A stretch of DNA of 53,520 nucleotides, counting the filler, from Streblomastix strix (taxonomy: Eukaryota), in NCBI GenBank assembly GCA_008636045.1. It is 3 parts of 3 records of this genome, joined end to end, with 100 filler letters (N's around TTAATTAATTAA, not from the genome) between each part and the next. Parts side by side here need not be neighbours in the genome. Positions count along the whole stretch, not along the records: positions 35,751 to 53,520 come from SNRW01000678.1; 2 more parts are not named here. One strand, 5' to 3'. Below, in pieces: positions 17,880 to 50,419 of this stretch; positions within the stretch are counted from its first letter, which is position 1; the number at the start of each line of letters is the position of its first letter. The notes under the pieces were generated by a model. The model was given only the letters and a program-made list of their open reading frames with translations. It searched no databases and was not told where the DNA came from. The position numbers and the translations under genes are program-made.

Positions 17880-17880
17880 T

Positions 17881-24585: not shown

Positions 24586-24627
<42 letters not shown>

Positions 24628-27600
24628 GATGAAGATGATGAAGAAGAAGTACCAAAGAAAGCAAAAAGTAGTAAAGTTTAATCAAATTCAGTTGGTAAGA
24701 AGAAAAAGAAGAAAGGAAATAAAAAGAAAAAGAAACCATTTGGTGTTTCATTTGATAGAAGAACTGGTCTAAAAGGAGGAATGGATTCAGATGATGATGA
24801 AGAAGAAGATGATGATGAAGAAGAAGAAGATGATGATGATGAAGATGAAGATGAAGAAGATATTAGTAGTAATGAAAATGATGATGATGAAGATGATGAT
24901 TAAAAGAAAAAGAAGAAGGATAAAAAGAAAAAAGATAAAAAGAAGAAAAAGAAAAAAGATAAGAAGAAAAAAGATAAGAAAAAGAAAGAAAAGAAGAAAT
25001 AATAAATAATTGAGAAATCATCCTACAAAGTTGACTTATAGAAAGATTTATTCCTTCTTGGATCAAATCTTCCTTATTTTGGAAGTGAATCTATTGCTGA
25101 AATTAAGATTGATGAAAATGACGAATAATAAATTGCACTTTAAATTCTGAGTCATGGAAAATTAAATGATGAAATAAAAGAGAAAGAAAAAGAAAAAGGA
25201 AAAGAAGTTTTAATTGATAAATAGAAAGATTCAGATAAAGATAAAAGTAAGAAAGAAAAAGAAACATCCAAATCAGCAGAATAAATTGCAATATCTAAAT
25301 TAGTGAAGTAGATTAAATAAATGAATAAAGATAAATGGATCACAGATTAAGAGAAAGATCGAATAAAGAAAGAAAAGAAAGAATAAAAACTTGCAAAGAA
25401 GAAAGCAAAGAAAGAAAAGAAGAAGAAAGAAAAAGAAAAAGAAGCAGAAACAGAAGAAGATAAAAAGAAAAAAGAAATAAAAGAATAAAAATAATTAAAA
25501 AAACAAATCAAATTAGAAAAAGCAAAAGAAGCTTGGCGTACATAATAAGACATAGAAGAAGAAATGACTCAATTAGATAAAACTGGATTATTATTGTTTA
25601 TTGGGAAAAAAGATGAAAAAGAAGATAATGAAGAAGATGATGAAGAAGAAGATGATGAAGAAGAAGAAGAAGAAGATGATGATGAAGAAGAAGATGATTA
25701 AACAAAAATAAAAGAAAAACTTGAGAAAGAAAAACACAAAATGGAATTAGCTATGTTCAAAATGAAAGTTGAATAACGTAAGAAACGTGAATAGAGAATT
25801 AGACGTCGAGCAGAACATGTTCATTCAGTTGCACTTGATGATGATGGAGTTCATCCTGTTTAATCTTCAGATTCTGATTAATCAACAACTCATGAAACAA
25901 TGGGATCTAGAATTGATGAAATGCATCAAAGATTACGTGAGATGATTGAAAGGATTAGTTAAAGTCCAAGTCATGATTCAGATGATCATGATCCTGATGT
26001 ATCACCTTAAACGCATTCTTCACATAATTCTTCTCATAATTCTTCAGATGATGAAGATGATTCAATTGGAGGAAGTGAGCATCATTCATCACATCCTGAT
26101 AGAGATAGTATTCATTCATTTCATTCACATCCTGATTCAGATGCAGAAACAGAACATCATCCTGATGATAGTGATAATTATGATTCATTATTGGATAGTT
26201 TAGATGGAAGTGATATTGATGATAGTGATATAAGTGAAGAAGAAGAATAATAAAATGTTGGATTAGTTACAGTTAATTAAGATTCTTAAAATGGAGCAAA
26301 TATTTGGTAATTACTAACAAATGCATTATAAGGAGGATAACAGAATAGAGGAAATAGAGATAATTAAGCTGAATAAATTGCAAATAGATTAGAAAGATTA
26401 ATATAAGGATTCTCTGATGGAATTGATTGGACTTCTTCAAAATAAGTAGAAATCCATCCAAAAGATATTTGTGTATTGAGAGGATATGCAAAATATGGAG
26501 GAGAAGATAGTGCTGCATAAATTGCAGGTATTACAGCAAAGATTTGGAAAACTACTCAAGGATATAGAGACCGAATATGTTAAGTGATTCGTATTGAAGA
26601 TGAAAGTGCATTTGTTAGAATAATAAACAAAGAAAGAAATTAATAAGAAACATTTTGGGTTGATAAGAAAGATCTGAAGAAATGGATTATTCCAAATAAT
26701 GTAGTTAATATCCTCAATATAATTGATAAAGAAAAGAAAGGAGATTATTTATAATATTCTGGAACATTGAAAGGTATAAAAGCATTGTAGCGAATTAGAA
26801 CTGCATTACTATTAGCTGAATTCTCACTTAATTAACATTCAGCACAAAATGTAATGATTGGTTTATTAGCTAATTAACCCAGAGAAAGACTGTTTCATGC
26901 AAAATAGATTTGTGAAGAAGGATTATTACTCAAATTCCTGATCTCTATTCTATAAGGAACAGTATTCATAGATATCAGACATCCAATTGAGATAATTGAT
27001 GGGAAATAATATAAGAGAGTAAGTCAATTATAGAATTGGAAATCAATTGATGATGAAGATTTGTTAATAACAGATCGATCAAATACAAATTAATAATAAA
27101 GTAATATAATTACTCCATCTCCAATTTAATTATTAAATACTCAATAATCATTTACATAATCATATTCATAATTCAAACCTAAATTCATAATTGAGAAACC
27201 AAATAATGATTTGGAATCAATTGCAATACTTACAAGAAGAATTGGATGGTGGATTGCAGATGAATTGATTAATGGGAACATAAGTGAAAGAAGTCTTGAA
27301 ATTCTTTCTTCTGATTATTTGGAGAAGAAAGAATAACAGAAGAAGCAGATTAATGTAACAATTAAAGGAACAATTGAGAAAGAGAAAGAGAAAGAAAATA
27401 ATACAAATACAATTGGAGATAAATAAGAAAGAGAAAAGATTGATCCTATCAAATAAGATCATGAAATTGAAGGATGGGGAGATGGATGTATAAGTTTCTT
27501 ACTCAGATCTCTTTTGAGTATTATTACTTATCCATAATCAGTTGCATTATCAATATTAGCAAGTGAATCAGTTGGTCTTCATGCAATTATTCCAAGAAAT

Positions 27601-30600
27601 GGATTCTTCTCTGAATCTGAAATATATCAGACTATTAATTAAAATGAATAAATAAGTTCATAAGGTTCAAAATTGAAATTATAGACATTGAAGAAACCAA
27701 CATTATAATCATCAAAAACAAATTTGCAATAATTTAATTCAAACAAACAACTTCCTGCAGCTTCAACATAAACTTCATAATTATCTTAACTCCATTTGCA
27801 AACATCAACATTGCATTCATCAAATAGATCAATATCTCCAAGCCCTCTTTTACAATCTCAAATATAATCAACATCAATTCTTAGAATTCCTCCATTTGGA
27901 ACATGCTAATTAAATATTGGAAAATAGAATAGATTTGGTCAAATTAATTTCTTATCTTCTACTTCATCATCAGGAACAGCAGTTGGAGGATCAAATTCAA
28001 CAGGAACTGGAATATAATTAAATGAAGTAATTGTAGTTGAGAGTCCTCATAATTATTTAGACAGCACTGATTTCTCTTAAGAATTGATTATTCCTGGAGC
28101 TAATGGACTTTCTATTGCATTTGATAGAAGATGTAGAACTGAATCAGGATCAGATGTATTAAAATTCATTAATCTCAACAACAATTCATTAATAAAAGAA
28201 TTCTCAGGTACAAGAGGATTCAGTAATTTTATCATTCCAGGAACAGATCGATGTAAATTTACTTTCCGTTCAGATGGATCAGTTAATGATTGGGGTTATA
28301 AATTCTTTGTTAAAGATGCAAAAGGAAGTGGAGGAACTTCAGGAACTGGTGGATCAACAACTGGAACTGGATAATCACTTCCATTTGTTTCTGGTGCTGG
28401 TATTGAATAATAATAATAAGGACTTCCATGGAATTAATATATTAATACTTTAGCTGAAGAATCATCAATAAATTAGAATAATTAGAATAATGAAAGAAAT
28501 GAAATATAAAAGTTGAATAGTAGCAAAGGGAAATTAGAGATTGTAACTTGGATATTACAATTACTTCTTGCTTTACCAAAGAGAGGAATTCATAAGAATA
28601 AGAAATTATTCAGATAGAAATCATTCACATCAAAAACTTAATCAGATGAATCAATTGGAGAATCATAAACATATTGGATTGATTTAGCACCATTAATTAG
28701 ACCTATTCTGAATATAGTAATGATTATAAATGGATAACATCCTCTATATAGAGTATTAACATTCTAATTAGGATAGATTATATAAAGATGGTCTGAATGC
28801 CATGAAATTGCTGGAATTCAACAACCAAATCAATTTCCTCTAATTTCTCAACCATCTTCTCCTTCTCCAATAATTAAATCATAATCTCCAAATTCTAATA
28901 ATGAATTGAATACAAATATTAATGGGAGTAATTCACCTTCAATTCAATAAGGTATTTATTAATCAAAACTTCCATGTAGATCCCTTCGTGGATTTCCATA
29001 TGGTCAAATAAAGAAGTTTATTTCTCATATTGGAATGGATTCAATATAAGATGATGATGAAGATGATGATGATGAAGATATTGATGATATGAATGAAGAT
29101 GAACCTGATCCAGATGTTGATATGACACTTCCACATGCTATTTAATTATTAGAATTAAAAGCTGAGATGGTTCATGCATGTAAAGTGAGAAAGAATATCA
29201 TTCAACATCGAAGTGGATTAATATAAGATGGATTAGATAAAAGTAAATCTGATATAAAATAACCTTCAACTTCTGATAATGGTGGAATTATTGGAATCAT
29301 AACAAACACATCAAATGTACCTGACTTAGATTTCTAACCAATTGAGATTGAGTAACTTGTTTCTGGTAAAACAAATATCTTCAGATTCCACATCTTGAAT
29401 GAATTAATAGCATTCTTCTTAGGACATAGATAGATATAAGCAGAGTTTATATGGTAAGGTGTAATAGATTCAGCAATGCGTGTTGGTATCGAGACTGAAC
29501 ATCCATATTCAGAAGACTGGGGAATGAATGTTGAATTCACAGGAGCAGATAAATTAAAAGTTAAATTGGATAAAAGAACTAAATTGGACAAAGAAAAGAA
29601 ACATTGTCTTATGATGAGTAAAGAATAATTTGGTGTTGAAGAGAAGAATATTGAAACTGATTCTGCAATCTCAGTTGATGTTGCTGGATCAAAAGTATTC
29701 CTTCATCTTCTGACTAAAAATACTCCTCCTTCAGAATAAAACAGTTTTGGTGTTCATGGTTGGATTATTCCTGAATTCAAAACATAAGAAGCTCAATAAA
29801 TATTTGGGAAGTAATTCTTATCCACAATGCGAAGGATTCATGAAATATTCTCAGATCGAAGTATCTGGAATTTAGAATTGGATTCAGCTATTGTTGATTT
29901 AATTAATCATGCATAAAGAAGATTGAAAATCCCCTGGTCTGAATTAGGAATGCGTGAAGCTATTGAAGAAGCTGTAGAATCATTCTAAGATTCATATACT
30001 AATACATCATCAGTATAATTAGAATAATAAGGAAGTTAATTACCTTCAATAACTATTCCAACTTCTCAATAATAATAATAATAAGATACAAATCTTGTTG
30101 TACCTCCTTCACTACAAATGCGCAATTAATAAATTGGAGGGAAATAAATTGGATCTTCACCTTCTCCTTCTAACCTAAATTCTCCAAATAAGATTCCTGC
30201 TTTAAATATTCCTTTAGGATTTTATTCTCCAATATAAATATTTGATATTAAATCTGAAGCTCTTGATCCAGATAATAAATATTTCTAATCTATATTAATA
30301 TAACCATCAACTAAAACACCACAACCTCCTTCTAATAATAATATTCCAATTACTGATCATCCAATTGATTATATTCCAATAGATTATATTCCTTAATAAA
30401 GATCTCCAACTCCATTCTCATAATAACAGACAATTAAATTTGATCGATTCAAACCTCAGATGAAGAATCCGATCTTAATTATCTTGTAAATGGCTTCTTC
30501 ACTTCCATCATAGAGTCCATTTGCACATATTCCACTTGATGTTTGTATTCAGATTGCAAAACCAATGCCAAAAGGAATTGAAGTGAAATAAACTGAAAAA

Positions 30601-32553
30601 GAAATAACTCCAACTAAAGAAGGAATATAATCAACTTCTTCTTCTTCAATATAAGGAATTGAAACTCCAACAGATTCTGCTTCTAAATAAGAAAAGAAAC
30701 CAGAATAATTTGATATTCTCAAAGATCCACTTAATATTCACCCATTAACTGTGAGATTATCTCTCTTATAGAAATTAAATAAAATAGTTTCATCAATATT
30801 TGATACATTACCTTTGAGTTCATTAACATCTTCACTTTCATTTATGGAGATTCTAAAATCATTCAGATCTTTACTCTTCTTAGAAATTAAATAGAAGATT
30901 TGGGATGATAGAATTAGTGCATCTTCTGGAAGAGTTACTCAACCTGAGATTAAAATCAATCGTACAATCAGATCAGCTGGAAAAGCAATTCGTAATTCAG
31001 TATTTGTATAAGTAATGGAAGCTCTTAAACCATATATTGCAGCTGGAGAATTGAAATCAAGAGAAAGAGCATTTAAAGTCAATTTCATTGGAGAAGGTAT
31101 GAAATATTTATTATTATTATTAATATTTTATTTATTTATTTATTTATATTATCCTTTTTATATTCAAATAGGATCAACTGATTAAGGAGGTCCATATAGA
31201 GATTGTCTCAGTGATATGGCAGATGAATTATAATAAATCCAGGAAGAAGAAGATTCATCTTAATTTGGATCAGGAAGATCAGGAAGCAAAACAATTCATT
31301 AAGGTGTATTCAGTAGAGGAAGTATTGATAGAAGTAATACAAAGATTGGAAAATAATGTCTTCTTCCATTACTTAGACCTTCTCCAAATCATGTTGATAA
31401 TGTTGGATCTGATAGAGAATGTTTCATTCTTAATACAAGTAATGATGAATAAGAATGGAGAAGAGGTACTGAAACAAGTATGAACAGAGGATTAATGAAT
31501 ATTAGTAGTAGTAATGATTCATAAATTATTGGAAGAAGTAATATTCTAAATTAAAGGAAGATTGAGATGCTTAGATTCTTAGGTTCTCTTATGGGAATTC
31601 ACATCTTAACTCACAATCCAATGAATATTATGCTTGCTAAGATTGTATGGAGGCATATAGTTGATGAATAACCAACTCTTGAAGATCTATCTGCAATTGA
31701 TGAAGATTTTGTTAGAAGTATGCGTAGAATCCGAGATTGTAAGAGTAAAGCAGAATTTATGTAATATGGAGTAGAATGGACAGTTGTTGCATCAGATGGT
31801 CATGTTGTAGATCTAATTTCACATCGACCTATTCACATCAAAGACAAATAATCTACTTCATCTACTAAATTAGAAGAAGATATTTTAGATTCATTTGGAG
31901 ATTAAAATGAAATATCAGTTTCATTTGAAGATCGGAATGCTTATTGTTAAGCAGCAGAATAATTCAGATTATAAGAAGGTGCCTCTGAAGCAGCTGAGAT
32001 TCGATCTGGATTACTTCAACTCATTCCAGGTGAAGTTCTGTTATTGGCAACTGGACCTGAATTGGAATTTCTTGTCTGTGGTGAACCAAATCTGACAGTT
32101 GATGATCTGAGAAGAATAATCCAATTGAATGTTGGTGGGCATAAAGAGTTAATTACTATGTTCTGGGAGATGTTAGGAAGAATGACAAGTAAATAAAGAT
32201 CACTGTTCTTACGATTTGCAACTGGTAGGAGTAGGATGCCACACTTACCATAAGGAGCAGATAATATAAGAGCTGTTCCTTCTAGTTTATAACTCAAAGT
32301 TGAATTAATGGGATCTCGTTCAAGGGTTGCATTTGATAAAACATTACCAGCTAGTCACACATGCAATCAATCACTTGAACTACCTCAATACTCTTCAACT
32401 GATATTATGCTTGAGAGATTCTTATATGCCATCACTAACTGTGTATCAATTGATACTGACTTCACAGCTTCTGGTGGTTTCCGTGAAGATGTTATTCAGA
32501 CAAATGATGATTCAGAAAGTGATAATATGAGTTCTGAGGAAATGGATGACTGA
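17881..32553 (+). CDS. Giant HECT-domain E3 ubiquitin ligase (large-HERC-like HECT), 5'-partial, >4,860 aa
   Basis: One reading frame from the gap edge to TGA 32551-32553 with TAA/TAG=Gln; track ORFs 19795, 28084 and 32308 share this frame. One intron at 31097-31171. HECT motifs: RAFKVNFIGEGSTDQGGPYRD, LLPLLRPSPN, FLGSLMGI, RSLFLRFATGRSR and LPASHTCNQSLELPQYSS..ERFLYAITNCVSIDTD, with the catalytic Cys codon at 32362-32364. Upstream are PCMT-like, UBR-box, UIM and CUB-like modules and long acidic or Lys-rich tracts. Confidence 0.93.
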
Positions 32554-32766
32554 ATGAATATTCAAATGAGAAGAGAGTGATATACAAGTGTTGTTACTGG
32601 ATGAATTTATTAGTTTTGGGATTATTGTTTATTTAATCAGTTTCAAATAATGGATAAATGGTGGTTAAAAAATAAATAAAAATCATAAAGAAAATTGAAA
32701 TAATTAAACATTAATTTGTGAAGTGAATACATTAAAAAAAACAACTTGTTAACTTTAACTGTGTAT

Positions 32767-34105
32767 TCAATCTTTGTTTATATTCTTTCCTTCATTATCT
32801 TCTTAAATTACATTTCTATGAATTCCTTTTTCATTTCCATTATCTTACTTATTATTTTCATTCATCATTTCATTTCTTCTTAATGATCCTTTCTTAGATT
32901 ATTTATCTGGTGATGTATATTATAGCATCTCTGAATCAATCTTATCTGGATGTGTTTGTTTGTGGAATCCTAATTTATCAACTCTTTCTTTCCATAAATC
33001 ATATCCTTCTGGATCTGAAAGAGTTCCTAATGGCACTCGTCCTCCTGATGCTGTTCTTATTATTTTATAACTGGAATGTAATTTATAAGGAGTAGTTTAT
33101 TCTTCATTTATATTATTATCTTTTATTTTATTTGATTATGATTTATTTTCAGTTGATGTCTGTTCAAAAGTTGATTTTTTAGTTTCTTTGTTTGTTTCTT
33201 CATTTTTAGTTTTGTTTTATTCAGTATTTGGAGACTTATTTATTTTATTATCTTCTTTCTTAACTTCAATTTCTTTCTTATCAGATGGTTTCTCTCCAAA
33301 AGATACAATCATTATAATGTTTTATTAATGAATTATGCATTAATTCAATTCTTCATATATTTTATTCTTAATTTTGGAATTAGATGGATTTAGTATTGAA
33401 GGAAGAATTGCAGATTTAAATGAAGAAAGTGCAATTGATGGAAGAATTGGAGGTAAAGATGAAGATTAATGTTGTGAGTTTCTATGAATTTCTAAATAAA
33501 CTTAACATGTTTCAACAGATTTAGTCATTTATGAAAGAAGAATTATTCTTTGGAGAATAAGTTATGGAAGATTAGATTTAGATTCAAGAATTGGGATGAT
33601 TTGGCAGAATTGAATTAATGAAGTGTTTAATAGGGTAAGAATATTAAATATTACATTTGGTTGATATGTAAGTGCACTCAATCCATTTATTTATTCAGAA
33701 GATTTAGAATCTTTATTAGAAGAAGAAAATATCTCTCCAAACTTCTTCATAGTTTATATTAATTATTGGATTAATGATTTTAGAGTATCAGTATATCCTA
33801 CAAGTGATGGAAGGATTATATCATTGATTACTGTGGAAGATGGATTGAAATCTGGTTTAAATGCGAGTTCAGCCAATCCTGATAGGGCAGGAATTGCATT
33901 TTGTATTTCACTGAACAAAAAAGAGAATAAAATAAATATTAAGTGGTAAGGATATATGATTGAAATACTCAATGGATTTCTAACTGAGACCAGAAAGAAG
34001 AGTTTAAAAACGTTGAGGTGCTTTCATAGGTGGTGCATTCGGTTTTGTGAAATGCTGAGTGATTGTAATAGCAAGATTCACAAATTCTTTAACAGAAGAA
34101 GCCAT
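32767..34105 (-). CDS. hypothetical protein, 426 aa, 2 exons, convergent with the HECT gene
   Basis: ATG 34105 (MASSVKEFVNLAITITQHF...), intron 33968-33911 (GT..CAG), open to TGA 32769-32767. No family recognised. Confidence 0.8.
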
Positions 34106-35189
34106 AAACTGTTAAATATCTTAAAATAAATCAAAAATATTAAATTTAAGAAGAAAAGTATAATTAAACATCTGAATAATAAATAGAGTTCAAGTTATAA
34201 ACAAATTTTAGAAATTTGAAATAAAATTGAATTATGTGGATTTTTAAAGCTCTAAAATATTATTATTTAGATAAAATCGATTGAATAATATAATTAAATA
34301 TAAATTACAATTAAATTAAAGTATTTAAAAATGTTTATGATTCAGAATTCATAAAGCAAGTTTTAATGTATAATCTCTGGTTAAATAAAGGAATATAAAT
34401 CATAAATTTGTTTCTTAAAATGTCCGAACATCTCTATATTTCAAAAAAATAAACAAAAAATGTTGTACTAACCTTAAAAACAGTAATTAAAATCAATCTA
34501 CCCCCCAAGGTTATTGTGACAATTCTATTAATCTAAAAATGTTGCAAGTTAACAATATTTTTCAGAAATATAATATTCGTATTAAATAAGTCCAAAATAA
34601 CCAAGAATTTGACAAGTATTCGTTTTGAACACTTATCATTGATATAATATTAGCTAAATTTGTGATAAATAAAAGAAAATTTATTATATAAACCGAATCC
34701 TAATATATAATTTCTTTTTTGTCCAATTGTAGGCCCACAAAATAGTCATATTGAATTTCATGCTATTTCTGTTTTAATATTTATTTAATTTGTTCTTCTT
34801 ACATTTTAATATTATATATTAATATTGTTTCAACTATTTAGCTGACATTTATTATCATTCATACAATAGTTTATGCTCATAACAGAATTTTCTAAATTTC
34901 TTGTAAATCTAGATTATTGTGCTTAAAATTACTTAGTACGATTTATATTTTATTAATATAGATTTGTGTTTATATACAATTGCTGAATATATTACTATAT
35001 TCACTAATTTTCAAGCAGAATATTTTATATTTATATTTTAAGACAAAAAGCATCTTTTTTAGCAATTTGCAAATATTATTTTGAGTTAATTATATTAAAT
35101 TATTTATTAATTTATTACTTTTTTCTACTTTTTATTTAGCTTGCATTATTGAACCATTGAATCCTACAGTAATACATACATTCATTGAA

Positions 35190-35650
35190 ATGGGTAACTG
35201 TTTGGGAGGTATTCATATTTTTTATTTTTTTTTAGGTTTTTTATTTTTAGATTAAATTCTCTTATTATCATTATAATAACACCAGTTTTAAATTAACAAT
35301 AAAGTAAAATAGATAAAAATATCTTAAATGCTGCAAAAATCATAATTTCATTTGCTTCATCTTATGAACGCGATAAGAATGTAGAATCAAATCAAAAATA
35401 AATGCAAATAAATAATATTAATTCCAAACCTCCTCCATTCACTCATTATATTTTATAATTATAAACACATCATTCACATTAACAAGGAAGAGGATGAATA
35501 ATTAAATCAAATTAGATCTTGTAGCAGATAATGTATAAATTATTTTCAAAGGTGTGGTGATGAATAAGTACAAACTGAACTAGTAAAAAATGAATATGCA
35601 AGAGCATTTACTATATGTATAAGTGTAGCTGGAGGGAGTGAAGAATAATA
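35190..35650 (+). CDS. 5' fragment of an oxymonad-type expanded-family protein with an N-terminal MGNC acylation motif; cut by the gap and possibly decayed
   Basis: ATG GGT AAC TGT TTG GGA G then a gtattc donor. Downstream GDEQVQTELVKNEYARAFTICISVAGGSEEQ resembles the recalled family motif GDEQ.QSELV..GYGRV......TAGG.GEEQ. Frame continuity is not established. Confidence 0.5.
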
Positions 35651-35750
35651 NNNNNNNNNNNNNNNNNNNNNNNNNNNNNNNNNNNNNNNNNNNNTTAATT
35701 AATTAANNNNNNNNNNNNNNNNNNNNNNNNNNNNNNNNNNNNNNNNNNNN
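35651..35750. other. assembly gap with artificial TTAATTAATTAA spacer (contig junction)
   Basis: N-run, TTAATTAATTAA at 35695-35706, N-run. Confidence 0.95.
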
Positions 35751-38700
35751 TGAATTATCAGCTTGTATGTTGAATATATAATATTAAATTAATAATTTAT
35801 TATTTAATATTAAAAGCTTTATTATTATTTGAATTATTAATTTATATTTTTAATTTTAAATATTTAAAATATTTTTTTTAATTTTTTACTATTATTTAAT
35901 ATTTATTTGATGTTTATTTTGTATGAAATATCAGTTCGTTTGTTCAATATTTAATAATAAATTAACAATTTATTATTTGATTTTAAAATTTTTATTATTA
36001 TTTGAATTATTAATATTTAATTTATTTTTAAATATTTAAATTTTTTTATTTTTCATTTTTACTATTATTAAATATTTATTTTATGTTTATTTTGAATGAA
36101 ATTTCAGCTTGTATGTTAAATTTATAAAAATAAATTATAATTTGATTAAAAATGTTTTTTTATTATTTGAATTATTAATTAATAATTTATTTTTTAAATA
36201 TTTAAATTATTTTTTCATTTTTACTATTATTTAATATTTATTTGATGTTTATTTTGAATTAAATATTAGAATGTTTGTTGATTTTGTAATAATAAATTAA
36301 TAATTTATTATTTTATTTTAAAATTTTTAATAATATTTTATTATTGATAAATAATTTATTTTTTAAATAATTAAATTTAATTTTTATTTATTTTATTATT
36401 TAATATTTATTTGATGTTTATTTTAAAATAAATTTCAGGTTGTATGTTGAATATATAATTTTAAATTAATAATTTATTATTTAATATTTAATATTAATAG
36501 CTTTATTATTATTTGAATTATTAATTTATATTTTTATTTCTAAATATTTAAAATATTTTTTTAATTTTTTACTAATATTTAATATATATTTAATGTTTAT
36601 TTTGAATGAAATATCAGAGAGTATGTTCAATATTTAATAATTAATTAACAATTTTTTATTTAATTGTAAAATTTTAAATATTATTTGAATTATTAATATT
36701 TAATTTATTTTTTAAATATTTAAAATGTTTTTTCATTTTTACTATTATTTAATATTTATTTGATGTTTATTTTGAATGAAACATCAGCTGGTATGTTGAA
36801 TATATAATAATAATTTAATAAATTTTTAAAAAATTATTAAAGTTTTATTATTATTTTAATTATTAATTAATAATTTATTTTTAAATATTTAATTTATTTT
36901 TTCATTTTTTACTATTATTTAATATTTATTTGATGTTTGTTTTGAAATAAATATTAGAATGTATGTTGATTTTGTAATAATAAATTAATAATTTATTATT
37001 TAATTTTAAAAATTTTAATAATATTTTTATTATTAATAAATAATTTATTTTTAAATAATTAAATTTAATTTTTATTTATTTTATTATTTAATATTTGTGT
37101 GATGTTAATTTTGAATTAAATATCAGATGGTATGTTGAATATAATATATTAAATTATTAAATTATTATTTTATTAAAAATGTTTTATAATTATTTAAATT
37201 ATTAATTTATATTTTATTTTAAAATATTTAAATTTTTTTTTTCATTTTTACTATTATTTAATATTTATTTGATATTTATTTTGAAATAAATATCAGATTG
37301 TATATTGATTATTTTATAATAAATTAATAATTTATTATTTAATTTTAAATATTTTTATTATTATATAATTTATTAATTTATAATTTAATTTTTAATATTT
37401 AAATTTTTTTTTCATTTTTTCTATTATTTAATATTTATTTGATGTTTATTTTGAAATAAATATCAGATTGTATGTTGATTATATAATTTTTAATTAATAA
37501 TTTATTATTTAATTTTAAAAGTTTAATTTTTATTTATATTATTAATTAATAATTTATTTCTAAATATTTAATTTATTTTTTCATTTTTACTATAATTTAA
37601 TTTTTATATGATGTTTATTTTGAATGAAATATCAGCTTGTATGTTCAATATTTAATAATAAATTATCAATTTATTGTTTAATTTTAAAATTTTTATTATT
37701 ATTTGAATTATTAATAAATAATTTATTTTTAAATATTTAAATTATTTTTTCATTTTTAATATTATTTAATATTTATTTGATGCTTATTTTGAAATAAATA
37801 TCAGCTCGTATGTTGATTATGTTATAATAAATTAATAATTTATTATTTAATTTAAAAAATTTTAATAATATTTTTATTATTAATAAATAATATTTTTTTT
37901 AAATAGTTAAATTTAATTTTTATTTATATTTTTATTTTATATTTATTTGATGTTAATTTTGAAATAAATTTCAGGTTGTATGTTGTATATGTAATATGAA
38001 ATTAATAATTTATTATTTAATATTTAATATTGAATTCTTTATTATTATTTGAATTATTAACTAATAATTTATTTTTAAATATTTAATTTATTTATTCATT
38101 TTTTTTTATTATTTAATATTTATTTGATGTTTGTTTTGAAATAAATATTAGAATGTATGTTGATTATGTTATAATAAATTAATAATTTATTATTTAATTT
38201 TAAAAATTTTAATAATATTTTTATTATTAATAAATAATTTATTTTTAAATAATTAAATTTAATTTTTATTTATTTTATTATTTAATATTAATGTGATGTT
38301 AATTTTGAATAAAATATCAGATGGTATGTTGAATATAATATATTAAATTATTAAATTATTATTTAAAATTAATAGCTTTATTATTATTTGAATTATTAAT
38401 TAATAAATTATTTTTAAATATTTAAATTATTTTTTTCATTTTTTACTATTATTTAATATTTATTTGATATTTATTTTGAAATAAATATCAGCTCGTATGT
38501 TGATTAAATTATAATAAATTAATAATTTATTATTTAATTTAAAAAATTTTAATAATATTTTTATTATTAATGATTAATTTATTTTTAAATAATTAAATTT
38601 AATTTTTATATATATTATTATTTAATATTTATTTGATGTTAATTTTGAATGAAATATCAGGTTGTATGTTGAATATATAATATGAAATTAATAATTTATT

Positions 38701-40045
38701 ATTTATTATTAAAAGCTTTATTATTATTTGAATTATTGGTTTTATTTTATTTCTAAATTTTTAAATTATTTTTTTTAATTTTTTACTATTATTTAATATT
38801 TATTTGATATTTATTTTTAATCAAAATTTCAGCTCGTATGTTGATTATGTTATAATAAATAAATAATTTATTATTTAATTTTTAATGTTATATTATTATT
38901 TGAATTATTAATATTTAATTTATTTTTAAATATTTAAATTTTTTTATTTTTCATTTTTACTATTATTTAATATTAATGTGATGTTTATTTTGAATGAATT
39001 ATCAGCTGGTATGTTGAATATATAGTATTAAATTATTAAATTATTATTTAATATTAAAAGCTTTATTATTATTTGAATTATTAATTAATAATTTATTTTT
39101 AAATTTTTAAATTATTTTTTTCATTTTTTACTATTATTTAATATTTATTTGATGTTTATTTTGAAATAAATATCAGCTCGTATGTTGATTATGTTATAAT
39201 AAATTAATAATTTATTATTTAATTTTAAAAATTTTAATAAAATTTTTATTATTAATAAATAATTTATTTTTAAATAATTAAATTTAATTTTTATTTATTT
39301 TATTATTTAATATTTAATTGATGTTTATTTTAAATGAAATATCAGTTTGTATGTTAAATATATATTATTAATTTATTATTTAATTTTATAAGTTTTTATT
39401 ATTATTTAAATTTTTAATATATATTTTTATTTTTAAATATTTAAATTATTTTTTTAATATTTACTATATTTTAAAATTTATTTATTGTTTATTTTGAATG
39501 AAATATCAGCTCGTATGTTGGATATATAATTATATATTAATTATTTATTATATTAATTTAAAAATTTTATTATTAATTGAAGAATTAATTTATAAATTAT
39601 TTTTTAATATTTAAATTTATTTTTAATTTTTACTATTATTTAATATTTATTTTATATTTATTTTGAAATAAATATCAGATGGTATATTGATTATATAATA
39701 AAAATTTATTAATTTAATAAATGTTTATAAGAATTTTATTATTAATTGAATTTTTAGTTTATAAATAATTTTAAATATTTAAATTTTTTTTTGTTTATAA
39801 TTTTTATTTATTTGAATTTTTTTTTATTTATAATTTTTATTTATTTGAATTTATTTATTGTTTATTTTGAATGAATTATCAGCTGGTATTTTGAATATAT
39901 AATAATAATTTAATAATTTAATATTTAATTATAAGAATTTTATTATTAATAAAATTTTTATATATTTAAATTTATTTTTTATTTATTATTTTATTTAATA
40001 TTTATTTATTGTTTATTTTGAATTAAATATCAGCGGGTATAATAA
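35751..40045 (+). repeat. tandem array of at least 26 AT-rich units of ~170 bp, each containing YAG-NNN-GT (intron plus 3-nt microexon)
   Basis: Core consensus TTTGATGTTTATTTTGAA(T/A)(G/T)AAATATCAG-NNN-GTATGTTGA with period 151-204 nt, mostly 169-173. The array runs off the contig start. Confidence 0.95.
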
Positions 40046-40705
40046 ATATTTATTAACAAATTTTTTTTATTTATTAAAATATTTTTAATTTTGATTTGTT
40101 TATATTTTTATTTATGATTTTTTTAGTTGGTGAACATTCAATTCGATTTATAAGCAGGTATCGTATATTTATATTTTTATCTTTTTTATACTTATTTAAA
40201 AATTTATTTTCGTTTAATATCTGATTATTTTAATATTCTTTTTAATTCTTTTTAACTTTTAATTAATTATATTTTATTATTATTTTATTATAATTGTCAA
40301 ACAGTGGTGATCTTTAAAACTCGATTAAATTTGAAAAATTTAGTTAAGTTTCATTTCCAGCGAAAGGGAATCAAATCTTCCGTTGTGGGTAGCGTTTGCA
40401 AGTCGAAGTTGACTTTAAATCAGTTCCAAGCAAAGTGGTGTTCTTTATTGATGGGGAATAGCAGAAGAACTACGTAACAGGAGTTCCGGACAAGATTCGC
40501 TTTTTCGTTTGATTAATTAATAATTTATATAAACCAATAATTTTCATATATTTTTTTTTGAATTGTTGTTATAATTCAGGCATTTGTTCAATAAGCAGGA
40601 TCATCCTTTCATATCACAAGATCTGAAAGACTCCGTTAGTCCTCAGCTCGAATTGATGCAGATTCTGTTGAATGGAAATGGGGAGAAAACTGGAAACGAA
40701 ATTGA
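35762..40705 (+). CDS. SPRY/B30.2-like domain gene, 5'-partial: 26 putative 3-nt microexons followed by exons 40127-40157, 40305-40506 and 40580-40705
   Basis: The conventional exons splice in frame to xGEHSIRFISSGDLQNSIKFEKFSQVSFPAKGNQIFRCGQRLQVEVDFKSVPSKVVFFIDGEQQKNYVTGVPDKIRFF/AFVQQAGSSFHITRSERLRQSSARIDADSVEWKWGENWKRN*. This is homologous to the 16722-17670 paralog and shares its intron after IRFF/IRLF. Inclusion of the microexons is inferred from splice signals only. Confidence 0.8.
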
Positions 40706-41399
40706 TATCAAGAAGAAGAAGAAGATGATGAAATGATTGAAATAATAATTAGAATAAAGAATAAGAGTTCAAAAGATTGCGCACTGAAATCATAATAGTT
40801 ATTTGCGATTATTTAATGAGTGTCTAAAATTGTATCAAATAAATGAGTTCTAGCACAATTTTATGTTTTTATAAAAATTTCAAATAAAATTTTTTGTATT
40901 TAGTAAGTAGAAAGTGAGAGTTTTAAAGTGCATTAAAAAACTTTGGGTAAAAAATTATTAAATTTAACAAATAATAAATATATAATCAATAAAAATAAAA
41001 CATAAACGTAAAAGAATAAAGATTAAACCAAAAATACTTAAAGATTTTGTTATTATACCAAATCGTTAATAGATGATCGTGAGAACTGAATAATAAATAA
41101 TTATTTTATTAAGACGAATCAAACCATTGGTTAATAATTCTTTTGTCGGAAAATACTTGGATATGCGGGATGAAATAATTTATTGAACAAATTTCAAGTA
41201 ATTTTTTTAATAATAATTAAAGTAATAATAATAATTATAATAATACTTTTTAATGGATATATCAATTAAATTAATATTGTTTATAAATTTATTTTTTAAA
41301 ACTCTTACCTACAAAAAATTTACTGATCATATATATTTTACTTTATATATTTTTCATAAATAAAACACATTATGGATTTTATTCGTCGTTTCCAGCTCA

Positions 41400-43230
41400 A
41401 ATTTGAGATCCCTTCTTTATGAGAATCTGAAAGGCTAAAGAATTGGTGCAAATAATCCAATATTTATATAAAGTAATTTCTTTTCTAAATTAAAACTATG
41501 AAAAAGTATAGATGAATGTTGATAATAATTAAAATACAAAAATTTGAATATGATCAAAGAAATAATAATTGAAACCATTATAGTAATTATAAAAGCAATC
41601 ATTACAAGTTTTTCAGAAAATTCCCAATATTAATATTTAACTATTTCATTCTTTTTTCTTCTCATATTCTTCCTCCTCATATTTGCATTAATAAACAATA
41701 TGAACTATTCTTTAACTATAAAGAAGATTTAAGCAAATTTCCAATTTTCATAATAAGTAACTTAGATTTGAAGAAAACTTTGAAATAATCTTTTATTATT
41801 AATTTCCCATTTTAGTTATTGTTCTTCACTTATTTCATATTTGTACACTTAGCATACTTGTTCAATTCCTTATGATTAATCATATATTGTTTTTGATGTG
41901 AAACAAATATCAGATGATCCATTTTCAGATTGCGAAGTGTGTGTATTATTTGAGAAAGCATTATTTAGAATATTGATTTCAAATCTTTGATTAGTAATAA
42001 AGATTCCACCTGAGTGCATTCTTGAGCAACTTGAGAATTTGTTATTTATAATAGAAATTTTTTCAAACCAATCATTATTAAATTATTCATTTTTCTTGAA
42101 TAAGTTAATTGGATAGGAGTAAGTATGAATAGAATTGAATTCTTGGTTTAATTTTGATGCATCAACATTTGAATTTAAACAAATAGCTCCAAATGATAAA
42201 GAACGATTAGAATAATTGCTTTTGCAACCTCTAAACATCTCATTGTTGATCTTCAATTCAAACTTTAGGTTCCAAATGGGCACATTTGCATATTCACCAC
42301 AAATTGTATAGATTTTTAAAAGTATATGCTAGATCGCAAATATTTATTGATTTATATTAGAATAAATGCAAAATTAAAAGTTGTTACTTTGCTGCTATTT
42401 ATTGTATAGAATTAGCTATATTCAAAAATATGAATTAAAGAAATATTTTGAAGAGTTTATCCATAACCAATGAAAAGTATATGTAACAATGGCAATTGAT
42501 GCTTAATATTTTATTGAACAACAAAGAATCTAAATTTTACATTCAATTATTAATATTCTTGAATCATTTGCACTATTAAATTTAGTGTAAAAATAATTTT
42601 AGTTTTATTTAATCACATTTCATCATCTCTCCTTATTGCTGTTTTAACTTCTTCATCTACTCTAATTTAAACTTCATTCCATATTACTGATTCATCAATA
42701 AGAATATTTTCATTTTATTCTTCATTTATTTGTATAATTTATATTCTGAAGTAATTGTCTGAGTTTTGTAGAGCTTAATTTATTGCGTTTAATTAATATT
42801 CTTTGTTTCATTTTCCTTCATTTGATGGTTTTTTATTGGCAATATGAGTTATTTTCAGATTTATCAGGATCAAATGATAGTATATTTGAGATGAGTATTT
42901 AGTAATATACATTTTTAGCAACAGTTGAAGTATTTCGAGCAAACATTGAAATTATCTCAGCTTTTATTTTACTAATATCCAAAGATTAAAAAGCAAAAAG
43001 CCAATATAAAATAGCATCTTTTTAAGTTAGGATTTCAATATTAATTGTATTATTTTAAAACTTGCAATCATAGAATTTGCAAATATATGTATTATTATAA
43101 GATTTAAGCCTACCAGTTTTATTCACAATTTTATTCACGAATTTATTTCTGTTGATAAACAATTCATTAAAGATGTAATTTAATTCTGATGAAGTTTCTA
43201 TATAAATTGCTCCAGATCCATCATTCATTG
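41400..43230 (-). pseudogene. decayed parallel beta-helix (Pmp/pectin-lyase-like) surface protein with a C-terminal transmembrane segment
   Basis: Fragments DGSGAIYIE, FYDCKFQNN, FRGCKS..FGAICL, ISIINNKFSSCSRMHSGGIFI..ILNNAFSNN and hydrophobic LVMIAFIITIMVSIIISLIIFKFLYF (~41525-41610). Frames are broken and boundaries approximate. Confidence 0.55.
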
Positions 43231-43714
43231 TACAAATTTTTCAATTTATTTTCAATTAATGCAATTCCTGTTTGTGACTAAAATATTTATCGAAATATTT
43301 CTTATCCTTTTGGATTATTCTATAGAAAATTCAAAAACTTACAATTTTGAAAAATAATTTCTAATTTTTTTTTGATTCAATTCAAAGTTTATAGCAGAAT
43401 AATATGTTGTTTTGCAAGCATGCTGGAATTTGCAAGTCTGAAATTATGATTTAATTTAAATTGTTTCCTTATATGAAACAGATAATACCTTTGAATTAAC
43501 CGAACCCATTTAAAATGCAGTAAATAAATAGTCATTTTATTCTTAAGTGTATTTCCAAAGACTTTTATTAATGCAAAAAATGGAGTTTTTTAATCAATTA
43601 TCTTTAAATAGTTGATTTGGATGCTTTACGAAGTTAAATTTCCAGATTTAATATTAATTATTGTTGATTTGTTCTCTAAACCAACCAAATACAGAGCTTC
43701 CATCTAATTACTGC

Positions 43715-45112
43715 ATGAATATTGATGAAGATATTCAAGAAGCAATGTAAGTCAAAGCGTTTCTTGCTAGATATGAAGCGATGAATGAAGCAGAATACGA
43801 GAAACAGGAAAGAATGAAACGTGATAGAAAAGAAGATGAAATGAAATAAAGAGAAATAAGTCGGGAAAAAGAAGAAATGTTGAATAAGATGAAAGCTTAC
43901 TTGATACTATATTTTGATTATGTTGAGTAAATGAAACTTAGAGGAAAAAGAAGGAAGAGAAAGAATAAGAGAAAGAGAAAGAAAACGAGAAAAATAAAAA
44001 GAAATAAAAAAATAGTGAAAAAGAATAAGAAATTTCGAAAAATAAAGAAAACTAAGATGAATCATAAAAAAAGAAAGAGAGAAAACTATAATAATTAAAC
44101 GACGAAGAAAAGGAACCCAAGCTCCAAAAAATTCGCTCAATAGAACACGAACGCCAACTCAAAGACAAAGAAGAAAAATAAAAACGTTCTTAAAAGCTCA
44201 CAATCGTAAATGAAAAAGTCAATCAACATATTCAATTCCCAAAAGCGCACACTTTGGATGAAGCCATTCAGTAGATCAAGTTGGGCGGTCTGTCTTTGGA
44301 TGACGGTGGGTTAATTGGATCGAATTACATAGATTCTGATCTGCTGGTGTTAGGTCATCTATTGAGGAATGGGTTGTGTGGACAGGATAATGTGTTCATC
44401 GCATCATTGAGGGTGAAGGAGAAGGAAAAGAACCGTGGGTAAGTATAGATAAAGGATTAAGAGATAGAATTGAATAAGGAAGAAGAAACACTTGAGAAGA
44501 AAAAAATAAGAAGAATTGGAAAATTTGAATGAAAACAAAAATTTGAACTAAAATATGAAGAAAAAATAAAATGACATACAGAATACAAAAATAACTCAAG
44601 CATAACCAACCCAACCAACTATTGTTCTCCCCGAATATTAGCCGATAGTAAATGCAACAGGATCGCAATCATTGAAGCCAAAATCATTTGTTGAATTCGT
44701 GGAGTCATTTATTGTTAAAGAATGATGATCCACTAAAACGACGAACGAACTGGAATCGATGATGCGATATAGATTAAGAGATGAAGGAGTTGATTTTGAT
44801 GAGAAATATGATAGAAATAAATAAGCAAATATTACAAAAAATAAAATTAAATAAGTTAATTTAGAAGACCAGTAAAAAGTTAAATAATATGATAAGATAA
44901 ATGAAGTTAAAGTGAAAGATGAAATTTTAACAAATATTGATAATGAAAAAGATGATGACAAAAATTAATCGGAAAATGATATTGATCAATCTTCGGATGA
45001 TTAATCATCATCTTCTTCTTCAACATCTTCATAATCATCTTCATATTTTATATTGTTATACTTGAGATGGTTATTTAAAAGAAATAATAAGCTGAAGGTG
45101 AATAGAACGTGA
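43715..45112 (+). pseudogene. hypothetical Glu/Lys-rich coiled-coil protein with frameshifts and internal TGAs
   Basis: MNIDEDIQEAMQVKAFLARYEAMNEAEYEKQERMK..., then a globular-looking piece HIQFPKAHTLDEAIQQIKLGGLSLDDGGLIGSNYIDSDLLVLGHLLRNGLCG; tandem TGA TGA near 44722. Confidence 0.5.
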
Positions 45113-45396
45113 GAGAATTGGTCATCATTATTAATTAAATAGTTTTTTTTTAATTTATTTGTTGTGTTTTACATGTCATTCAGTGTAATTTATTTTAATG
45201 TTTAATATATATATTTTGAGAAAAATAGTGTTACTTAAATTTTCAAATAGACTTATAAATCAATATATAAATTTATTTAAACTATTTTGATAGGTTCAAA
45301 CTCTTGGAGAATCTGACATGTTAAAAGATAGAAAAGAAGATGATATTAAACTTGGCTGATAACATTTTGGATCAGTTGCCTATTACAAATTACATT

Positions 45397-48300
45397 TCAG
45401 AAGAACACTACTATAAAACCTAAAATAGTAAATGCAATGATCATGCCAAAAGTGACAGTTCGAGTAATTTCATTAGATTTCCAAAATGTATTGGTTTTAT
45501 TATTCAACTTTTAATTTTCCTTTTTTGTATTGTTTTCTTTAATTTTTTTTAATATCTATCTAATATCTTATTTTTATTGCTTTTTATCTTAATATTTAGA
45601 TGGCAAAAATATATCAATTTGCTGTCGAATTTGTTGTTTAATAATTTGTTGAATATTGTTTATATTTAGTAAATTCTCCATTTCATTGTCAAAATTTTCC
45701 TTAATATTTGATGATAATATCTTTTGATCAAAGTTACATAGCAAGTTCGTTACAATTTCATTACGAATATCAAGTAAAAATTCATAAATTATCTTATAAA
45801 TTTTGACATATATTGTATTTCAAATATTATTCATGAATAAATCTAAAACTTCATCTTTCATTAGATTCATTGAAAAATAGCAAATAGATTAATAAATAAC
45901 TTCTAAATTCAAACTTTAAAAGTTGAAAGCATTAATATTATTTAAATTTAATTCAGTAAATTCAAATGGATTATTCTAATTCATTTTAGATGTTGTATTA
46001 TTGCTAACTTAACTTTAGTTAGATTGAATAATGAAAAAATTATTATTCATACCAGATAGAATTTCTTCGGAACTCTTGAATTATTTATGAAATTTTCATT
46101 TAAGTATTTTTGAAGAAACATTCTTAAGAGCTTTACTAACTGTATCTTTTGTTAGTTTCTATATATTATTAACCAAATTGATATACTTTTTAGAATTATT
46201 ATTTTCTATTCTTTAAAACTGTCAAGTGAAGCTTAACATTGAATCATTAATTATACTATATATAATATCAAATAATTCATAATAAATAATATTTTAAATT
46301 GAATTGGGGAAATTATGATCTAATATATTTACTAAGTCTTAGTCTTACAGATCCTTAATTATTTGCAAAGTAAGATTTGTTTACATTCTCATTTATTAAG
46401 AATTATGGAATTTAATATAATTCAATTTAAATAGAATCTTATATAATTTTATGGATATTATTATTTATCAAAATTGGAACATCTTCTTTCAATACTCTAA
46501 TCTCAACTTATTCAACACTATCAAGTAAATATTTATTCAATATACTTTCTAACATATCAGATGATGCACTAAAAACTGGATCCTGGAATTGGCTTAGACT
46601 TGAATTAAGAAATAATTTCAAATCAATTCCTAATTACTTTGAAATTTCTCTATGTAAATCTTACTAAATTATTAAATGAATTTCTTTCAAAACTTTTGAT
46701 ATATTAAGATTACTAATTTAACCAGTTAATAAATTTTGAGCAATATTGCTTAAGGAATTATTCATGTTTTCAAATGTCAGATACTTTGTTTCAAAGTCTA
46801 TCTAATTATTCAACTAGAAATATTGAAGTTATTATATTTAATTTATTATCTATTTTTGAACTTTCTTTCTGAATTCTTCATGATTATGATTATTAAGCAA
46901 CTTCTTAGCAACTGATTCTAATGACTTATTTATTGAATCTTTTGCAAATTTCTAAATATTGTTCTTTATCAGATTATACTTTTCATCAATTGAATAGGAT
47001 TTATTTTAAAGCTCGAGGTATTTTAAAGAATTATTTCTCAAATTTTATAATTATATTCTTGAGTTAATATTAGCAAATATCTTATAATGTAAATTAAATA
47101 TTTATCTAAATTATTGAAGAAATTCTTTTTTTCATTTCAGATAATCTATCATTATATAGAGCACGACTTATTTTTAGTTCTGATATGTTTTTCATACTTT
47201 CATGTATTACATCTTTAATAAAATTTATTTATTCTTAGATTAGATTACTATCTTTCAATAATATGAATTCAGAATTAATATTTATATTAATTGACTATTT
47301 TAACTCTAAATTAAAATTAATTTCTTTAGTAATTTATTATTAATTATTCATTATCTTATGTTCTAGAATTTTTGTATTTTTATTAGCAATAATTTGATTT
47401 ATATATTTTTATTCTTCAAGAATAATTTCTTTGGTTATATTTTTTAAATTATTTGATATTTAGCGTTCAATATATGTTTTTAAATAGAATTCAATAAAAT
47501 TTTTAAAATATGCATAATAACTACTACATGGTATAATTAATAGATTTTCATGAATATGTTGTTTTAGTTTGAGATCGTTCAATTTTTCTGGAATTTTTTT
47601 AATTAAACTACTTAAAATTTAACAAGATATTTATAAGCTGTTATTATGAGAATGTAATTTATCTATCTCAATTATTCTCCCAATTTCTTTGAGAATGTGT
47701 TTAGAGGTTTGAACATCTGATAATTTCTAATTAATACTATTCAATGAATTAATAATAATATCTTGAATAATCTATTGTATTTATTACTTTTCAACAATTT
47801 ATTTGTAATCTTCAACCTTAATAAGAATAATTTCATCTATCAAATTTTATGTTTTTTCTAAGAATTAACTTTAATTGTCATTAAAAAGTATATATTTGGT
47901 ATAATCTTTGATTAATGAATTAATTTGCGGTATAAATTCTAATTAATTATATTCATTATTAATAATTTATTTCATTTTTTTTTAAAAAATCTAATTTTAT
48001 ATATTTATTTCTTTAAATATAAGATTATGAAGTTAATCTTATATATATTTATCTATCATTGAATTTTTAACATTTAATTTAATTTTTGAATTATTCATTT
48101 TCATACTATTTCTTATTTCTTGACTTATATTATTTATGTCTGCTCTATATACATTCTACAAAATAATAGATATTTCTTAATCAATGGTAGATGATATTGA
48201 TTTAAAAATTTTATAACTTAGAAATTCTGAAATACTTAAATGCCCAATTGGATTATTATTAATTAGATTAAAAATTTGTTTTTCTTTTTCTTGTATCAAA

Positions 48301-49076
48301 CCACAGTTGATTATTTTACAGATTGAATTCTCTATTTCTGTTTTAAATGTATTTTATTACAATTTTTCATCAATATTATTTAGTGAGTTATTTAGTATTT
48401 AATTTGGTCTTCTCATTTTCCATTCAGGAAGACGAACCCAAGAAACCCCATAAAAAACGAATGTATTTTCAATAGATTTTATGATATTGTCATGATTTTT
48501 TGTTCCAATTAATTATGATGTTATATTATTTATAAGATTATTAACAGAATCATGAATATATTCTTTAACAACTATTTTTGTATTATTTTGTGAGTTATTG
48601 TAAATTAAATTTTGATCAAATTCTTAAACAATACTTTATATATTTCTTAATTAGGTATTTTAAAACAAATTATTTAATATGTTATGAATTATTTAACTTA
48701 TCATTAGTGGTATGTTATTATTCATCAAAATCTTAGAAAATTAACAAAATTCTTTTTAAATTATATTTTCTACTTAATCTTATATATTTGTATCTAGAAT
48801 ATTCTGCACTGTATTACGCATAGATATAAAAACGTTATTTTAGATTTATTCTTTTATTATTGTTTCAAGAAGATTATGAGCAATTTCGTTCAAAGTTTAT
48901 TATAAATTATCAAAATCTTGATTTTATTCATAATTATTAATTAAATTTTATTCATCAAGTATACTTCTAGTTTATAAATCAAATTTGTTATAAATTTAAA
49001 TCTTGCTTAAATTAAAATCATTATTTTATTAACTTTTGATTTTATCACTGAATAAAGCTTCTAATTCGTATTAAGG
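45397..49076 (-). pseudogene. long Asn/Ile/Gln/Lys-rich helical protein (~1,200 aa) with a C-terminal membrane anchor; at least two frame changes
   Basis: TGA-free frame from ~49076 to ~47000 (includes FVFYGVSWVRLPEWKMRRP). The frame changes near 47040 and at least once more further on. Ends RTVTFGMIIAFTILGFIVVFF-TGA at 45399-45397. Start not resolved. Confidence 0.55.
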
Positions 49077-49414
49077 ACCTGTAATATAAATCGAAAATAA
49101 ATCATCTTCATACTATATAAAAATGAACTCAAATCATACAGTCCATATTGATTTTGCTTTATTGTTCAAGTGGAATAAAAATTAAATAATATATTTTTAA
49201 AATTTTGTTTGTATTGCCACATTTGTGGCAGGTTTATACTAGTTTTCCTAATTTTAAAAATTCAATTCAAAAATCTATTATTAAATAATTAGTTAATAAA
49301 TAGAAAAATAGAATTAAATAAAATAAATTTAACTTTATTTTTATTTTTAAACTCAAAAAATATATTACGTAATCCAGTGTCAGAAGTGAAGCGACATATT
49401 TCCTTGTTTCTTAA

Positions 49415-50399: not shown

Positions 50400-50419
50400 T
50401 TTCTTATTAAATATTTTTT

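Follow-up and report, generated by a model that had tools for sequence, protein, structure and literature searches.

Known arrays of very short exons and a comparable locus in Streblomastix strix

In the long introns of Drosophila, recursive splicing proceeds through ratchet points at which nothing is left between the two splice sites (AG/GT), and the micro-exon genes (MEGs) of Schistosoma carry symmetric exons of ∼6–36 nucleotides (nt), in multiples of three, that are thought to vary exposed proteins. Codon-sized microexons have been reported from Tuber melanosporum, where NACHT-ankyrin (nank) genes contain tens of 3-nt exons per gene (Iotti et al. 2012, via PMC4986451 and PMC3689799), and the papers citing that work describe the microexons as a means of diversification via alternative splicing (PMC4986451, PMC3689799). 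Dozens of tandem units, each an intron with a short exon and all of them spliced, make up SNORD115 and SNORD116 of SNHG14 according to PMC11608373. The locus described here belongs to the oxymonad Streblomastix strix and lies in a stretch of 53,520 nt from assembly GCA_008636045.1 (the window). It is a tandem repeat directly upstream of an exon of a gene of the SPRY fold family, and it probably represents at least 26 tandem spliceosomal introns of ∼166 nt, each accompanied by three exonic bases, that would be removed unit by unit so that the triplets stay in the mRNA.

As at the Drosophila ratchet points, a 3′ splice site would stand directly before a 5′ site and introns would be removed stepwise from 5′ to 3′, but the S. 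strix array would leave 3 nt per step and its steps are copies of one intron. Exon skipping would keep the frame, as in the Schistosoma MEGs, although the MEG introns do not form a single-unit tandem satellite and MEG exons are longer than 3 nt. Whereas SNORD115 and SNORD116, as presented in PMC11608373, have non-coding exons and a small nucleolar RNA (snoRNA) in each intron, the S. strix exons are of 3 nt, in a coding region, and the array has no Rfam match. The likeness to the Tuber nank genes, as far as the citing papers portray them, is that many 3-nt exons occur in one gene of an expanded family of putative recognition proteins. Tuber, however, is a fungus with the standard genetic code and NACHT-ANK proteins, while in the oxymonad TAA and TAG encode Gln, the array falls in a SPRY loop and its codons would be split in phase 1; the S. 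strix array is known here from DNA alone. On the evidence of the citing papers, arrays of codon-sized microexons have already been reported for nank genes, and what S. strix would add is split codons in the SPRY loop of an oxymonad. A literature search, supplementary files aside, turned up no description of an array of this type, either from an oxymonad or with split codons.

Structure of the array

The repeat tract covers ∼4.4 kilobases (kb) of the + strand (35751–40126) and has a guanine plus cytosine (GC) content of only 7%. Tandem Repeats Finder (TRF) delimited a repeat at 35756–39792 with a period of ∼169 base pairs (bp), 23.7 copies, 80% matches and a higher-order period of 340 bp. The arrangement YAG-NNN-GT (Y, pyrimidine) was found 26 times between 35760 and 40039, with CAG as the acceptor in 23/26 and TAG in 3/26; the donor GT is present in 26/26 units and the full GTATGT in 20/26. 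Consecutive 3-nt pieces, each between a 3′ and a 5′ splice site, are thus present in 26/26 cases, and AG and GT do not abut as they would at a ratchet point, three bases separating them in 26/26 units. The features of the tract are as follows.

35751..35761, + strand: remnant of an intron unit, its final 11 bases (tgaattatcag), cut by the contig start
35762..40036, + strand: array of 26 three-base pieces, with 25 intron-like units between them of 148–201 nt, mostly 166–170 nt
Starts of triplets 1–13, + strand: 35762, 35935, 36108, 36270, 36439, 36618, 36788, 36958, 37127, 37297, 37467, 37636, 37805
Starts of triplets 14–26, + strand: 37975, 38152, 38321, 38492, 38661, 38833, 39006, 39177, 39346, 39510, 39679, 39883, 40034
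40037..40126, + strand: last intron-like unit, short and diverged, 90 nt, GTATAA...TTTTAG; holds the ATG of the deposited model at 40114–40116

The contig opens at 35751, part-way through a unit, which leaves the array truncated on its 5′ side and makes 26 a minimum count. Including the triplet, the repeat units measure 151–204 nt (n = 25) and the last unit 93 nt. Of the 25 matches to the sequence AGNNNGTATRTT in the window, 22 lie in the array; 1.2 would be expected for the whole window. Periodicities of 2, 4 and 7 units are present within the array, and triplet and flank have been inherited together, the TAG acceptor being paired with AAT in 3/3 cases.

These regularities bear on how the units arose. 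They could be insertions of a mobile intron (an introner-like element) rather than tandem duplicates, and the same intron 3′ end is indeed found before exons of at least three paralogues of the downstream gene, once at another position in the protein (P0009). However, no dispersed copy was found elsewhere in the 53.5-kb window, and an 18-nt core of the unit has 25 matches in the array and 2 outside it (3 mismatches each) against 2.2 expected by chance. An exact spacing of 3 nt repeated 26 times, together with the 2-, 4- and 7-unit pattern, argues for unequal crossing-over, and the joint inheritance of triplets and flanks (TAG with AAT, 3/3) also speaks against repeated insertion, which we regard as most improbable. 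A snoRNA or other RNA within the units was considered and rejected, as Rfam gave no match at E ≤ 1 in 35751–40800.

Splice signals of the units

Slamovits and Keeling (PMC1501061) describe S. strix introns as having A, U and G conserved at +3 to +5, a pyrimidine always preceding AG and a T-rich 3′ end, and give 85 nt as the mean length of those known. The three confirmed introns of the window are GTATGA..TAG (75 nt), GTATCG..CAG (147 nt) and GTTTGA..CAG (73 nt). Set against both, the units of the array agree in their GT-AG ends, in GUAUG at the donor, in the pyrimidine preceding AG and in being T-rich towards the 3′ side, and every unit bears the species' splice signals. Among the columns of the unit in which G or C is the majority base, only two never vary between units (25/25), the G of GT and that of AG, and in the remaining columns the majority base is kept in 10–22 of 25 units. 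A conserved TTGATG ∼25 nt upstream of AG is a plausible candidate for the branch site.

Alternatively, the whole array could come out as a single long intron, or as a nested set that leaves a 78-nt remnant to be skipped; the triplets would then be absent from the mRNA and the internal splice-site pairs would represent leftovers of duplication. The frame is kept with 0 or with 26 triplets of 3 nt each, three-base exons are hard to define, and full-length members of the family need a loop of only ∼18–22 amino acids (aa) at this place, all of which agree with a single intron. Its length, at least 4.4 kb, would nonetheless be exceptional beside the 85-nt species mean given in PMC1501061 and the 73–147 nt of the introns in the window, and it offers no account of why the Gs of GT and AG have been kept while other G/C columns decay. 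We consider removal in one piece unlikely; two further properties of the triplets that it does not explain are given below.

The downstream gene and its SPRY-fold family

The gene that follows the array is on the same strand, with three coding exons and two introns.

40127..40157, + strand: 31-nt exon with phase-1 entry, (x)TT GGT GAA CAT TCA ATT CGA TTT ATA AGC AG
40158..40304, + strand: intron, 147 nt, GTATCG...ACAG; junction agrees with P0002
40305..40506, + strand: exon encoding GDLQNS...KIRFF
40507..40579, + strand: intron, 73 nt, GTTTGA...TCAG; agrees with P0002
40580..40705, + strand: final coding exon, AFVQQ...WKRN; TGA stop, 40703–40705

The three exons reproduce the deposited 123-aa protein P0002 save its first four residues, MIFL, which arise from an ATG at 40114 in the intron-like tract tttatgatttttttag. 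P0002 has nine paralogues of 72–94% identity, and a profile made from five of the paralogues found 225 relatives at E ≤ 0.001. Those looked up were all S. strix proteins (8/8), two of them with the source name SPRY or B30.2/SPRY. Full-length members (P0017, P0163, P0023, P0036 and others) share one layout, in which an N-terminal half ending in a ...GIAD.S strand is followed by a loop of ∼18–22 residues and then by a strand K(K/T)(T/S)VRY..G.LSH that aligns with GEHSIRFISSGDLQ of P0002. The 40127–40157 exon encodes (V)GEHSIRFIS-S and aligns to this KTVRY/SIRY strand.

A structure model of P0017, built from a 42-sequence alignment, has a predicted local distance difference test (pLDDT) score of 92.8 and 14 beta strands. 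Its best matches in the PDB, found with Foldseek, are the SPRY/B30.2 domains of TRIM9, TRIM67, Ash2L, SPSB3 and HERC1 at a probability of 1.00, with target-normalised template modelling scores (TM-scores) of 0.59–0.70 among the top matches, and a language-model feature search ranked SPRY clusters first (0.94). The model thus predicts the SPRY beta-sandwich fold, for the paralogue P0017 rather than for the copy that carries the array. A model of P0002 from 10 sequences was unusable (pLDDT 40.8). P0002 and P0004 have only weak Pfam matches to Neuralized (E 0.05–0.1), and nothing significant was found by Pfam in the single exons and neighbouring open reading frames (ORFs).

P0002 aligns to residues 105–208 of P0017 only, the second half of the sandwich. 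In the P0017 model a long loop separates strands 71–77 and 97–101, and the 3′ splice site at 40126 maps to the end of it. As P0002 is a half domain without an internal Met, a functional copy must start upstream and its transcript must cross the array. We therefore infer that the array of this copy sits within coding sequence, at a surface loop of its SPRY domain, and that the missing N-terminal half and its exons lie upstream of the array beyond the contig end. A location within the SPRY-domain coding region is the strongest argument that the array must be spliced.

The deposited annotation, which starts at the ATG at 40114, would be correct if the tract were a non-coding AT-rich satellite 5′ of a truncated or independently started copy, with CAG-NNN-GTATGT as a motif of the satellite. 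Satellites typically show periods of this kind, here 169 bp with dimers of 340 bp, the contig break falls in the repeat, and none of the sequencing runs matching 31000–40800 is on record as RNA. Against this, the product would have only 8 of the 14 strands of the SPRY sandwich, the starts predicted for paralogues differ in place and context and sit in intron-like sequence, and variation among paralogue exons is biased to third codon positions, which argues for constraint at the protein level. In addition, the box equals the species' 3′ and 5′ splice signals exactly and in the orientation of the gene. We judge a satellite of this kind very unlikely.

The third-position bias comes from paralogous DNA contigs, where 15 of the 25 listed variable exon sites are at third codon positions (p = 0.0056), another 14 sites lying beyond the listing. 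Such a bias among copies indicates constraint on the protein and that the annotated frame is real. The predicted N-termini of the nine paralogues are mutually non-homologous and the position of the predicted start codon is not conserved. For three of these N-termini, MFILNEVSD (2 proteins) and MFILNEIQD (1), the source is translation of atgtttattttgaatgaa.ta(t)cag, the 3′ terminus of the unit; exons of other family members are thus preceded by this same intron end. The annotated starts of the family therefore look like gene-prediction artefacts. Deposited models that appear to start at spurious intronic ATGs and to represent half-domains would be due for re-annotation.

Reading phase and codons of the triplets

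A first-pass annotation of this DNA had counted 26 triplets and proposed that they are read in phase 1, each codon being formed by the last base of one triplet and the first two bases of the next. Its triplets and first dinucleotides were reproduced (CT 11, AT 5, AA 3, GT 3, TT 2, AG 1 and CG 1), as was the peptide FPQCQTEYDYSSRQYARSPALSHAAVGEHSIRF that it gave for inclusion of all 26. Phase 1 agrees with the downstream frame of the 40127 exon, seen in P0002 and nine paralogues, and with codon usage. When a codon model from the HECT gene of the window was applied to the triplets, phase 1 scored −155.4 bits, phase 0 −169.4 and phase 2 −193.3, and the phase-2 reading contains a TGA. GC at codon positions 1/2/3 is 0.50/0.58/0.08 in phase 1, the same shape as in the HECT gene (0.40/0.31/0.13). 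The wobble position in this phase is the middle base of the triplet, which is T in 21, A in 3, G in 2 and C in none. The assignment of phase 1 is accordingly supported by the downstream frame, the codon model and the GC profile.

In phase 0 the triplets would encode a hydrophobic segment, LFLNVRLNMIILLVNMLVLLLFLMLR. This reading was rejected, as it conflicts with the downstream SPRY frame; it also needs CTC five times and CTG three times, both rare (the HECT gene has 404 Leu codons, 15 of them CTC and 14 CTG). The segment is so tidily hydrophobic because NTN codons specify hydrophobic residues.

Ordered pairs of triplets reach 18 amino acids, Met and Trp being out of reach, and no ordered pair yields TGA, since no triplet begins with GA. 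TAA and TAG do arise at junctions, twice and once among the 26 codons formed when all triplets are included, but are sense codons: the HECT coding sequence has 332 of them among 4865 codons and ends in TGA. The assignment of TAA and TAG to Gln in S. strix is established knowledge (cited in PMC13002328 from Keeling and Leander 2003). All of this bears out what had been claimed. The further suggestion that stops are avoided through depletion of GA starts holds only in so far as GA is absent from the starts; statistically the absence is empty, 0.35 being expected in 26 units. It is at chance level, with P(0) = 0.71 given how bases are used at the first two triplet positions and 68% of shuffles without GA, one array by itself having no power for such a test.

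The gene used for comparison encodes a HECT-type ubiquitin ligase and occupies 17880–32553 (+), with ∼4865 codons, one 75-nt intron (31097–31171) and a TGA end. Long acidic and Lys-rich low-complexity tracts fill its middle.

Divergence of triplets and introns

The triplets have a GC content of 30/78 (38%), against 6.9% in the introns of the array. Divergence was compared in the 35 pairs of units with less than 10% difference between their intron bodies (mean 7.0%). In these close pairs the 5′ triplets differ at 58/105 positions (0.55) and the 3′ triplets at 49/105 (0.47). The corresponding values are 0.070 for the intron body, 0.057 for positions +1 to +9 of the 5′ splice site, 0.038 for YAG, 0.066 for the region of the putative branch site and 0.19 for the tract from −15 to −4. 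Units 15 and 21, for example, differ at 7/166 positions of the intron but are flanked by AAT versus CTC on one side and by ATG versus TTT on the other. No p-value is attached to the close-pair counts, because the units are related by descent and the counts are not independent.

Unequal crossing-over copies triplets along with introns, and a peak of difference between two splice-site troughs is for that reason unlike a neutral satellite. The peak points to selection that keeps the triplets different from each other, or keeps each as it is, and selection on the triplets would require that they be expressed. Removal of the tract as one long intron accounts neither for triplets of 38% GC, patterned like phase-1 codons, amid a repeat of 7% GC, nor for triplets that differ 7–8 times more than intron bodies between close units.

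Proposed origin and splicing of the array

Tandem duplication of an intron together with the first three bases of the next exon would leave 3 nt of exon with the intron on both sides, and unequal crossing-over could then have expanded the array. Each copy adds 3 nt, so the reading frame would never be disturbed at any copy number. A possible form of the cassette before duplication is found in P0004 and P0005, where back-translation by homology fits one extra triplet (ATT and TTG, respectively) after the intron end, joined directly to the exon that begins TTGGT..., as expected of an intron that carries the opening three bases of the next exon.

The short introns would be recognised singly, each GTATGT pairing with the next YAG, and removed one after the other from 5′ to 3′ in a manner resembling recursive splicing but leaving three bases per step. 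This order would follow since a donor located just 3 nt past an acceptor becomes usable only once the upstream intron has been removed. The mRNA would then carry at least 26 split codons, each made of the last base of one piece and the first two of the next, and the surface loop of the SPRY domain would be longer by at least 26 residues. Selection on the loop would keep the triplets different from each other.

Skipping of triplets, if any, would alter the junction codons. That triplets are skipped in a regulated or combinatorial way seems doubtful. We give equally little credence to a splice-coded hypervariable loop, in which inclusion and skipping of phase-1 three-base exons would write many versions of the binding loop of one SPRY gene, each junction codon depending on which two pieces meet and none being TGA, and the large family would serve as a variable recognition repertoire. 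The S. strix cell carries a coat of ectosymbiotic bacteria.

If the triplets do enter the mRNA, they would be among the longest known runs of three-base exons, and every codon of a protein segment would be assembled across an exon junction under a genetic code with one stop. A tandem repeat could then grow harmlessly inside a gene, provided that its unit is a complete intron plus 3 nt, and the arrangement would offer a possible route to vary a surface loop of the SPRY domain.

Several observations weigh against unit-wise splicing. A donor just 3 nt past an acceptor is sterically awkward, and a series of 26 such sites would be extreme. Four sequencing runs match 31000–40800, all of the kind 'DNA?' or of unknown kind, and none is on record as RNA; a run of unknown kind (X2) gave one 35-base piece of intron at less than 90% likeness in 40100–40800, with no joint informative on splicing. 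The units are related by descent, and statistics per unit overstate their independence. In the 35 close pairs the middle base of the triplet is the slowest to change (0.23–0.31 against 0.54–0.69 for the outer bases). As the middle base would be the phase-1 wobble, this is the reverse of ordinary purifying selection, and it fits only with favoured amino-acid change or with T being ancestral or recently common at this position. Neither the upstream exon with its phase nor the first half of the domain is in the window. The array contig is a short-read assembly that begins within the repeat, and the order and number of units are as assembled. Lastly, the Pfam SPRY model gave no match at E ≤ 0.01 in 7 members of the family.

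Searches for related arrays

Scanning metagenomes for two adjacent units gave 99 stretches, of which the 98 loci examined were unrelated satellites, none of them array-like, with periods of 18, 23, 83 bp and others and a GC content of 0.32–0.57; the window's own locus was not recovered. Among them, an abundant 23-bp minisatellite containing CAGAGAGTATGT matched the two-unit pattern (L003–L098, many WLWD01/WLWI01 contigs, unrelated metagenome assemblies of ∼39% GC). Its matches warn that CAG-NNN-GTATGT alone is unspecific. A scan of viral contigs gave 3 single matches and no array, and a protein search with the reading frame of the array (P0012) found nothing among 793 candidates.

Contig boundaries, neighbouring sequence and further paralogues

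The window consists of three contigs, nearly equal in length, joined by identical linkers, N44 + TTAATTAATTAA + N44, at 17780–17879 and 35651–35750. The last two segments measure 17,771 nt and 17,770 nt (35751–53520), the latter value agreeing exactly with the longest contig recorded for P0002. Features that cross a linker are artefacts, an example being a 4973-aa 'ORF' that starts at 17632.

35651..35750, no strand: artificial contig linker, N44 + TTAATTAATTAA + N44, outside the locus; marks the 5′ end of the array contig

Because of this linker, the DNA left of 35651 is unrelated to the array and the upstream exon is outside the window. A short ORF at 35190–35208 (+) of the neighbouring contig reads ATG GGT AAC TGT TTG GGA G, followed by GTATTC, and would encode MGNCLG, which we take to resemble the start of an N-myristoylated or palmitoylated protein. 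This 19-nt piece has a matching phase and was tried as a first exon, but was rejected since it is on the other contig, left of the linker that separates it from the array.

Two further paralogues depart from the common pattern. In P0013 a 37-residue N-terminus that is not AT-rich, MSSYVAMKSNPF...CTYQSIY, stands directly before VGRRSIRF, where the others have intron read-through; this may be a copy whose loop is encoded without an array, or a model built from small exons. A frame shifted by one base is also open through all three exons downstream of the array (40127–40737, +) to a TGA at 40735–40737. Variation among the paralogues gives the shifted frame no support, and the deposited paralogue P0019, which enters it after ...IRFF, looks like the product of a mis-chosen acceptor.

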